Assembly: GCA_035489505.1 (NCBI GenBank) | Contig: DATHKF010000684.1 | Location: forward strand, 1-32,281 | Origin: Bacteroidia bacterium | GTDB taxonomy: Bacteria; Bacteroidota; Bacteroidia; Palsa-965 | DNA length: 32,281 nucleotides | Direction: 5' to 3' | In this document: positions 1,692 to 25,911 of the stretch, piece by piece | Position numbering within the stretch: position 1 is the first letter of the stretch | How the letters are laid out: each line of letters starts with the position of its first letter | Translations under genes and position numbers: made by a program | The notes under the pieces: model-generated | Databases searched by the model: none | What the model saw: the letters and a program-made list of their open reading frames with translations, nothing else | Told to the model about the DNA's origin: nothing

Positions 1692-1929
1692 GACAGTGTC
1701 TCAGTTTGAACATTTGCTATTTGACACGGCGACACGGCGCATTTTTACGGTATTTCTTATTCTAAGCCCGGGCGCTCACGGCGAGATAACGGTAACTTCA
1801 CTATAGAATGAAAGATTTCCGCTTGGCGGAAATACAATTGGTCTCGCCGTGAACGCGCGGGCTTAGAACGGGTTTTGTGCTTCTTTTAGCGCCGTGTCGC
1901 CGTGTCAAAAAGCAAAGTGAGACACTACC
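1692..1929. mobile_element. MITE-like nested palindromic element, family A copy 1
   Basis: The ends are GACAGTGTCTCAGTTTGAA... and ...GTGAGACACTACC. There is a perfect 20-bp inner inverted repeat, TTGACACGGCGACACGGCGC (1721-1740 / 1889-1908), and a third nested palindrome TTCTAAGCCCGGGCGCTCACGGCGAG. The 8-nt flanks are TAAAAAAC and AAAAAAAC. The interior is ~95% identical to 9699-9901. Confidence 0.6.
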
Positions 1930-9698: not shown

Positions 9699-9901
9699 GG
9701 CAGTGTCTCACTTTGCTTTTTGACACGGTCCGATAGCAATCGGGAGCGCATTTTTACGGCATTTCTTATTCTAAGCCCAGGCGCTCACGGTGAGATAACG
9801 GTAACGCGCCGTGAGCGCCCGGGCTTAGAACGGGTTTCGTGCTTCTTTTAGCGCCGTGTCACCGTGTCAAAATTATCAAATGTTCAAACTGAGACACTAC
9901 C
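9699..9901. mobile_element. MITE-like nested palindromic element, family A copy 2
   Basis: The ends are GGCAGTGTCTCAC... and ...CAAACTGAGACACTACC. The interior is the same as copy 1 at ~95% identity, but the short and long end types are swapped. The left inner arm is interrupted by the mini-hairpin CCGAT-AGCA-ATCGG (9730-9743). Confidence 0.6.
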
Positions 9902-22880: not shown

Positions 22881-23044
22881 GGTAGTGTCTCAGTTTGGCC
22901 ATTGGGGATTTTTGAAAACCGCTTAAGCGGTTGAATGTTTAGGACTGTTCATTGCCGGGGGGCAATGAACCCGGTAAACCAGCTCAACGGTTTTAACCGT
23001 TTCCATGCCACAAATCTTAACTGATTTCAAACTGAGACACTACC
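22881..23044. mobile_element. MITE-like element, family A copy 3, carrying family E cargo
   Basis: Perfect 16-bp TIRs GGTAGTGTCTCAGTTT / AAACTGAGACACTACC, with a perfect 8-bp direct repeat GGGAGTTC immediately outside both ends (22873-22880, 23045-23052). Confidence 0.7.
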
Positions 23045-25829: not shown

Positions 25830-25911
25830 GGTAATGTCTCAGTTTTATTCAGGCCGCGAATTACACGAATTACGCTAATCACTCCTTAGCGTAATTCGTG
25901 TAATTCGCGGC
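25830..25911. repeat. Solo family-A end followed by a perfect 26-bp-stem hairpin
   Basis: GGTAATGTCTCAGTTT (25830-25845) matches the A TIR at 15 of 16 positions. GCCGCGAATTACACGAATTACGCTAA (25853-25878) and TTAGCGTAATTCGTGTAATTCGCGGC (25886-25911) are perfectly complementary, with the loop TCACTCC. Confidence 0.8.

Follow-up and report, generated by a model that had tools for sequence, protein, structure and literature searches.

A palindromic miniature transposon family of a Bacteroidia genome with interior layers in two orientations relative to its ends

The window analysed here, the whole 32,281-nt contig DATHKF010000684.1 of a Bacteroidia bacterium (GCA_035489505.1), contains two copies of a small palindromic element, at 1692–1929 (copy 1) and 9699–9901 (copy 2), that share an interior on the same strand and carry swapped ends. 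The source genome (G000) is a fragmented metagenome bin of 810 contigs (4.45 Mb, 47.7% GC, 83% complete), of which the window is one contig. Both interiors lie in the + orientation, with 95% identity between 1737–1796 and 9746–9805 and 94% identity between 1845–1910 and 9807–9872. The 'short' (S) ends are exchanged, 1900–1929 being 97% complementary to 9699–9728, as are the 'long' (L) ends, where 1695–1722 is 93% complementary to 9871–9898. The interior includes two 20-nt internal loops that are non-complementary to each other: loop A, ATTTTTACGG(T/C)ATTTCTTAT, at 1741–1760 and 9750–9769, and loop B, CGGGTTT(T/C)GTGCTTCTTTTA, at 1869–1888 and 9831–9850. The parts of the two copies are as follows (subfamilies are described below).

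1684–1691, no strand: left 8-bp target-site duplication of copy 1, TAAAAAAC, a 7/8 match with 1930–1937
1692–1720, + strand: L end of copy 1, with terminal repeat GACAGTGTCTCAGTTTG, a degenerate GGTAGTGTCTCAGTTTG, and subterminal AACATTTGCTAT
1721–1740, + strand: stem 1 of copy 1, 5' arm, TTGACACGGCGACACGGCGC, with two CACGGCG heptamers; a perfect 20-bp inverted repeat with 1889–1908, paired in the DNA fold
1741–1760, + strand: internal loop A of copy 1, ATTTTTACGGTATTTCTTAT, unpaired in the fold
1761–1786, + strand: stem 2 of copy 1, 5' arm, pairing with 1842–1868 in the fold
1787–1841, + strand: apical region of copy 1, a remnant of the long-subfamily apical module, holding the mini-hairpin at 1815–1833
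1842–1868, + strand: stem 2 of copy 1, 3' arm, from the DNA fold
1869–1888, + strand: internal loop B of copy 1, CGGGTTTTGTGCTTCTTTTA, from sequence comparison and fold
1889–1908, + strand: stem 1 of copy 1, 3' arm, the perfect inverted repeat of 1721–1740
1909–1929, + strand: S end of copy 1, including the terminal repeat ...CAAAGTGAGACACTACC
1930–1937, no strand: right target-site duplication of copy 1, AAAAAAAC
9699–9721, + strand: S end of copy 2, GGCAGTGTCTCACTTTGCTTTTT
9722–9749, + strand: stem 1 of copy 2, 5' arm, in which the mini-hairpin M, TCCGATAGCAATCGGGA (9729–9745), replaces the second CGACACGG unit
9750–9769, + strand: loop A of copy 2, from sequence and marker typing
9770–9830, + strand: stem 2 arms of copy 2 with a 10-nt apical loop, TAACGGTAAC, of the short-subfamily kind
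9831–9850, + strand: loop B of copy 2, from sequence and marker typing
9851–9868, + strand: stem 1 of copy 2, 3' arm, from sequence
9869–9901, + strand: L end of copy 2, AAAATTATCAAATGTTCAAACTGAGACACTACC

The mini-hairpin of copy 1 reads ATTTCCGC-TTG-GCGGAAAT (1815–1833), and CCGAT-AGCA-ATCGG sits inside 9729–9745 of copy 2. Folded as single-stranded DNA, copy 1 formed a strong hairpin of −76 kcal/mol (z = −13.6) and copy 2 one of −52 kcal/mol (z = −7.3), with loops A and B mostly unpaired and forming one large internal loop. A sequence-only reading of the window had described the same-strand interior, the non-palindromic 20-nt loops, the swapped ends, the perfect 20-bp inverted repeat and both mini-hairpins, and all of these statements agree with our analysis. 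It had also raised the question of whether the loops are presented single-stranded, which the fold answers largely in the affirmative.

A genome-wide search recovered 64 regions of G000 related to the two copies, 176–285 nt in length. All of these regions were intergenic, lying between long open reading frames, and the element has no transposase gene. A 17-bp terminal inverted repeat (TIR; GGTAGTGTCTCAGTTTG) delimits the family, with GGTAGTGTCTCA(G/C)TTTG present, inverted, at both ends of all complete copies. Flanking duplications of 2–12 bp were counted for 69 TIR-bounded elements (match threshold at least 7/8), and 51/69 had an 8-bp duplication with a match of at least 7/8, while other lengths gave no signal. 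Together, the TIRs and the fixed 8-bp duplications therefore identify the copies as true miniature inverted-repeat transposons (MITEs) moved by a DDE transposase. This transposon nature, as judged from TIRs and target duplications, is what the sequence-only reading missed.

The body of the element is a long quasi-palindrome built on CACGGCG heptamers, three in direct order per arm, whose concentric stems are separated by asymmetric parts. These include the unlike subterminal ends L and S, the mini-hairpin M, which is optional and sits on one arm, the two loops A and B, and the apical region, itself asymmetric. A comparison with 24 congeneric species did not recover the body in any of them, though the terminal repeat bounds other cargo there, and the family of about 60 copies appears species-specific on this comparison.

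Copies were typed by six markers (L end, S end, loop A, loop B, an apical motif P and M), with loop A as the orientation marker. Type I reads S-A-P-B-L, the pattern of copy 2, and type II reads L-A-P-B-S, the pattern of copy 1. Among the 40 complete copies there were 29 type I, 10 type II and one S...S copy, the last contradicted by a second assembly. With partial copies at contig ends included, these numbers became ~44 type I and ~14 type II. The long/short dichotomy was clean in alignments of the 64 regions, with no intermediates, and the continuum of end variants that had been raised as a possible outcome was not seen. The pattern far exceeds what chance would produce. M occurred in ~19 copies, usually between S and loop A. 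Type II copies occupied at least 10 loci, each with its own duplication, and 8/10 of these duplications matched at no fewer than 7/8 positions. A GATC variant was present in 5/9 short type II copies and in no type I copy. Since flipped copies have their own target duplications and private single-nucleotide polymorphisms (SNPs), both forms transposed after flipping. Similarly, type II copies at 10 or more loci share variants and so spread as type II, which makes the orientation of the body irrelevant to mobility. Flips are rare relative to transposition.

Type II could instead be an assembly artefact, produced when an assembler crossed the palindrome the wrong way or joined halves of different copies, and chimeras do occur at this repeat. 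In one case, L020 (Ga0193752_1000177), the left flank of the C594 locus is joined to the right flank of C635 through the common interior, giving a false S...S form. In another, C649:30–223 of G000 is an S...S form at a contig edge for which the other assembly gives L...S. Both S...S forms are assembly chimeras, and many contigs of G000 and of the assembly ERZ27268085 end inside the element. However, the type II copies are not chimeras, because most carry matching 8-bp duplications on both flanks and five of the nine short ones have the GATC variant that is absent from type I. Type II copies were also reproduced in independent assemblies (four for copy 1), and their perfect arms, only ~22 nt long, are expected to be below the final k-mer sizes usual for assemblers, 'k141' in contig names hinting at k. 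We regard an artefact as extremely improbable.

The stability of orientation at single loci was compared at consensus level between assemblies. A second assembly, made independently from the same population (JGI Ga0193752/Ga0193753) and with contigs reaching 146 kb, covered 30 loci with flanks 98–100% identical to G000, nearly all of them 100%. Architectures agreed at 27/31 elements comparable between these two assemblies, including both copies with a flipped apex. The discordant 4/31 comprised two S...S forms and two copies in a tandem pair on C334 whose S-to-L order was unchanged, and none was a flip. The copy-1 locus was identical, in one orientation, in four assemblies. Its whole 590-bp intergenic region was base-for-base identical in ENA ERZ27268082, and the covered parts were identical in ERZ27268085 and JGI 3300020034. 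A look-up by exact protein did not find the copy-2 locus in other assemblies.

These comparisons bear on the possibility that the interior is an active DNA switch, flipped at single loci by a recombinase or by frequent recombination, as in invertons and phase-variable promoters. In its favour, the flipped segment is bounded by a perfect 20–22-bp inverted repeat, and all breakpoints contain inverted CACGGCG heptamers that could be a protein site. Furthermore, Correia elements are reported in a review to invert in culture (PMC10969869, citing Elbeyioglu et al. 2017). Against this, the copy-1 locus has one orientation in four assemblies, no discordant locus was flipped, and flipped copies are set apart by lineage-specific SNPs and indels. 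No orientation bias relative to flanking genes was found, either by ends (12:8) or by interior (7:13). Inspection of the element sequence by eye revealed no promoter-like motif (no promoter scan was run), and an Rfam search of the window gave no match. An active switch is thus highly improbable, and the invertible segment proposed in the sequence-only reading finds no backing as one that switches at a locus. The consensus data point to rare historical inversions.

The history of these inversions was traced through two subfamilies. Members of the long subfamily (~285 nt) have two extra apical hairpins and the T variant of loop B; they are ~86–92% identical to copy 1 over the interior, with 83% mean pairwise identity over the full alignment. 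Those of the short subfamily (~190–205 nt) share one apical deletion and the C variant of loop B and are ~94% alike. The long subfamily is probably older and the short one younger. Both states occur in both subfamilies. Flipped short-subfamily copies carry the loop-B C variant and the apical deletion of short type I copies. Copy 1 and C109 are type II members of the long subfamily with the T variant and a common 47-nt apical deletion. The closest relative of copy 1 is a long type I copy, C552 (92%), with which it shares the L-end variant GAACATTTGCTATTTG. Flipped copies in each of two hallmark-defined subfamilies mean that the end/interior inversion happened at least twice. A CCCAAG haplotype shared by two type II and two type I copies hints at a third stem-1 event, within the short subfamily.

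Alignment also clarified the apical region of copy 1. The sequence-only reading had described 46 extra nt there; the apical surplus and its hairpin are real, though they are no addition, being what is left of the ~92-nt apical module of the 285-nt copies after the 47-nt deletion.

Inversion was not confined to the outer stem. In C83 (long) and C537 (short) only the apical region has been turned into its reverse complement; both cases are confirmed in the second assembly and count as two independent flips at the apical stem. C111 and C527 carry M as its reverse complement on the opposite arm, and C753 and L013 have the order L-M-A. The arm of the outer flip is TTTTGACACGGCGACACGGCGC (22 nt), represented in copy 1 by 1721–1740, and that of the short-form apical flip is GGCGCTCACGGCG (13 nt, perfect). 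Without exception the breakpoints are within the arms of inverted repeats, and flips occur at three nested internal stems. The earlier proposal that the interior is inverted relative to asymmetric ends is accordingly borne out, for more than one event and more than one nested level.

A copy at C498:1490–1715 bears on the ancestral state. It is a decayed, ~80%-identical long-form copy of type I whose terminal repeats are nearly unrecognisable, which suggests that type I (S-A...B-L) and the long form are ancestral. Decayed half copies of the long form, likewise ~80% identical, were also seen at C498:2300–2390, C298:8000–8100 and C92:2040–2130.

The two orientations could also have arisen by nested insertion. 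In that case the palindromic body would itself be a mobile hairpin element, inserted time and again, either way round, into an L+S shell. One terminal repeat does enclose several unrelated cargos, and an abundant palindrome family without TIRs has the same CACGGCG-iteron architecture as the body. However, no empty shell was found, the shortest TIR pairs (138–140 nt) being internally deleted copies. Both orientations occur in each of the two deletion-defined subfamilies with exactly the same junctions, and there are inner-layer flips (C83, C537), where insertion is inconceivable. 'Naked' interior copies were considered as proof of an independent body and set aside: the best example, and the sole TIR-less look-alike, is the ~80%-identical decayed family copy on C498, whose flanks are still L/S-like. 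Nested insertion is therefore quite unlikely.

Exchange between copies, by ectopic recombination or gene conversion between copies in opposite orientations, might likewise swap ends without any inversion inside an element. Some information has been exchanged, since the presence of M shows no linkage to the interior haplotypes and, in C753, M stands together with the type II GATC variant. However, reciprocal exchange of arms would give S...S and L...L copies and break target duplications; no reliable S...S or L...L copy was found, and type II copies keep matching 8-bp duplications. We consider it unlikely that such exchange made the swapped ends. The inversions were intramolecular, because each reliable copy keeps exactly one L and one S.

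Taken together, the favoured reading, to which we assign a probability of about 0.75, is of a MITE whose layers flip by rare intramolecular inversion and whose flipped copies stay mobile as sub-lineages. Its MITE nature, the clean two-state ends, the recurrent flips at nested inverted repeats and the inheritance of flipped states are shown by the comparisons above. Each asymmetric layer is bracketed by an inverted repeat, and an occasional intramolecular inversion between the arms turns that layer relative to the outer ones. A flipped copy remains mobile and its descendants make up a sub-lineage. Copy 2 probably represents the ancestral arrangement (S-A...B-L), and copy 1 falls into a small sub-lineage, within the older long subfamily, whose entire interior has been inverted (L-A...B-S).

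The likeliest route for the inversion would be template switching, or fold-back of the nascent strand, as a replication fork crosses the hairpin; short-homology recombination would be a less likely alternative. Efficient RecA-dependent recombination in E. coli needs roughly 23–27 bp. Hairpin-related indels are frequent in the family, among them exact losses of M and parallel shortening of the two arms of stem 1. Arms at or below the RecA length, together with these many indels, favour template switching during replication. Template switching has reportedly been invoked for quasi-palindrome mutation (Ripley 1982; Dutra & Lovett 2006). It is also the mechanism invoked for the repeated inversions seen at palindromes of chloroplast spacers (PMC2903610). 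On present evidence, the flipped core is a by-product to be expected when palindromic DNA is copied, and the element does not work as a genetic switch.

Several points weigh against this interpretation. The maximum-likelihood tree of the interior, built on 109 usable columns, was almost unresolved; the best tree had 6 state changes and its strongly supported branches force only 1, so the number of independent flips is taken from a handful of indel and SNP hallmarks. The lack of linkage between M and interior haplotypes means that the mosaic is also the work of gene conversion between copies, which might imitate some 'independent' flips. No inversion event was seen directly, and a consensus-level comparison leaves room for low-frequency switching at a locus. 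No intact autonomous insertion sequence (IS) with identical ends was found in fragmented G000 or its relatives. Finally, sequence alone cannot separate template switching from RecA-dependent recombination.

The CACGGCG heptamers, which also lie at the ends of the TIR-less family, might themselves be binding sites of a protein, a recombinase or unconventional transposase, that mobilises that family and catalyses ongoing low-frequency site-specific flips. We consider this very unlikely; were it true, the flips would re-orient T-rich loops relative to neighbouring genes.

Tests for function concerned the stems, the loops and the surroundings of the element. Stems decay by one-sided mismatches, with a double change in only 5/68 pairs, and a structured RNA was rejected on this ground together with the Rfam result for the window. 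An oriented regulatory role was likewise rejected, given the absence of end or interior bias relative to flanking genes. Nucleotide diversity was 0.023 in loop A, 0.059 in loop B and 0.06–0.07 in stem 2 and the terminal repeats. The sequence-only reading had attributed conservation of the unpaired loops to recent common descent or to a binding site. The diversity, stem-decay, orientation and Rfam results together indicate that it is mainly recent common descent, and a binding site is not convincing, loop A being somewhat less diverse and loop B not.

The candidate mobiliser was approached through the element ends. These read GGTAGTG and have an 8-bp duplication, fitting the GGnnnTG ends and 8–9-bp direct repeats listed for the IS1 family (PMC10425158). 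ISAba3-like members of this family have the terminal repeat GGTGGTGTTTCA... and 8-bp duplications (PMC6382973), and 10/12 terminal bases of our family match that published repeat. The most likely mobiliser acting in trans would be a DDE transposase of the IS1 family, an assignment drawn from these ends that is well supported but not proven. G000 has an IS1-family transposase pseudogene on the minus strand of C756 (12059–12708; PF03400, 29.8 bits), with recognisable zinc-finger, helix-turn-helix and DDE parts, a single frameshift close to the C-terminus and no terminal repeats that could be recognised. No other PF03400 match at E ≤ 0.001 came from G000 and four terminal-repeat-rich congeners (G012, G013, G018 and G024). 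A congeneric locus, L060 (G020:C153, ~1170–2300), contains an IS1-like element of ~1 kb with a broken reading frame and the ends GGTAATGTATCAAATTA, also given as GGTAATGTATCA..., and GGTTTTGTATCGGTTTG; directly adjoining it is a 60-nt MITE with both of its ends. From these shared ends, the two may be a parent/derivative pair. Long-range terminal-repeat pairs in G000 enclosed ordinary genes and no parent IS, a related-locus search of genome contigs found no parent IS, and IS1-like genes of relatives lacked the exact family ends, those of the L060 element being related but not identical.

The terminal repeat bounds at least three other cargo types in G000 and further types in other congeneric species. 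One of them lies in the window:

22881–23044, + strand: a MITE of a different family with the shared terminal repeat and a perfect 8-bp duplication, GGGAGTTC

As this element shows, by comparison of its ends, the terminal repeats are a transposon 'shell' common to several cargo types. A further cargo under the same repeat reads GGTAATGTCTCAGTTT... and continues into the hairpin GCCGCGAATTACACGAATTACGC; it was seen at 25830–25911 of the window (one end only) and in G000 at C436:12678–12816 and C321:4163.

A second abundant palindrome family, without TIRs, is present in G000 in at least 56 complete copies of ~190 nt, none of them in the window (examples at C152:1381–1574, C407:1473–1673 and C475:1127–1320). 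The two ends of this family are ACCACGG-(CGNCACGG)n-CGC ... GCG-(CCGTGNCG)n-CCGTGGT, the left side having an A-run and the right side a T-run. The family shares the architecture of the MITE body, namely a CACGGCG-iteron stem, asymmetric internal loops of ~18 nt and a second stem. Small hairpins of one pattern (6–8-bp stem, 3–6-nt loop) recur as interchangeable modules in several repeat families of G000. This included AATCGC-TAAA-GCGATT, TTCCGC-TTA-GCGGAA, CCGAT-AGCA-ATCGG and ACCGC-TTAA-GCGGT, in the apical regions of long copies (e.g. C552:1948–2232) and in the window at 1815–1833, 9729–9745 and 22915–22935. Gain and precise loss of these small hairpins, as with M, look like a separate process.

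The closest precedent for the family is the Correia elements (CREE/NEMIS) of Neisseria, small non-coding MITEs with terminal inverted repeats, a directional core and alternative end variants (PMC2649163), for which inversion has been reported. However, Correia elements have a TA duplication and no known transposase, whereas the family here has 8-bp duplications and IS1-type ends. Correia ends also carry tested promoters and IHF/RNase III sites, none of which is shown here, and in our family the flips take place at three nested internal stems and are not confined to inversion between the terminal repeats. ISAba3-like insertion sequences and MITEs of the IS1 family resemble it in GGnnnTG-fitting ends and the 8-bp duplication; it differs in that the MITE lacks a transposase gene and that its body, instead of being an IS interior with deletions, is a CACGGCG-iteron palindrome.

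In chloroplast spacers, inversions associated with palindromes are recurrent (PMC2903610). These are alike in that short hairpin-forming inverted repeats bound the segment and that the inversion is homoplastic and takes place without a dedicated recombinase. Kelchner and Wendel are also said to have described, in 1996, small inversions at hairpins in the non-coding DNA of chloroplasts. In our family, too, the inverted segment is exactly bounded by hairpin arms, with at least two stem-1 events, two apical events and changes of the M arm. The chloroplast cases are single-copy organelle loci compared between species, whereas here a multi-copy transposon amplifies the flips and several layers flip.

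Invertons (fimS, Bacteroides polysaccharide promoters) share a segment between inverted repeats that is found in two orientations, although they switch at one locus with a site-specific recombinase and a promoter, in contrast to the single orientation per locus observed here at consensus level. A linked invertase is not expected, because the copies are dispersed over ~60 loci. The flip/flop of parvovirus terminal hairpins similarly presents the asymmetric interior of a terminal palindrome in two orientations; it arises in every replication round at near 1:1, whereas the family here shows ~3:1 (29:10) and lineage-inherited states. REPINs are likewise abundant, intergenic, long imperfect hairpins of repeated short motifs. 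RAYT transposases move these REP doublets, which, unlike our family, lack both terminal inverted repeats and target duplications. A RAYT/REPIN link was considered and rejected: G000 has five Y1-transposase (PF01797) genes, and neither CACGGCG arrays nor the terminal repeat lies close to any of them. The flipping of layers is not a new phenomenon; the particular family is new.

The family, with ~60 copies, two states and nested layers, is a cleanly documented case in which palindromic mobile elements flip their own layers and then spread both isomers. It shows as well that a hairpin body from another repeat class can be carried by a terminal-repeat 'shell' of the IS1 type. Elements of this kind break short-read assemblies and create chimeric contigs, and a regulatory switch or a structured RNA may wrongly be seen in them. 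As homoplastic characters, their flips lead repeat classification astray. Should minority orientations turn up at single loci, the family would offer a tractable model in which to study DNA inversion without a recombinase in Bacteroidia.

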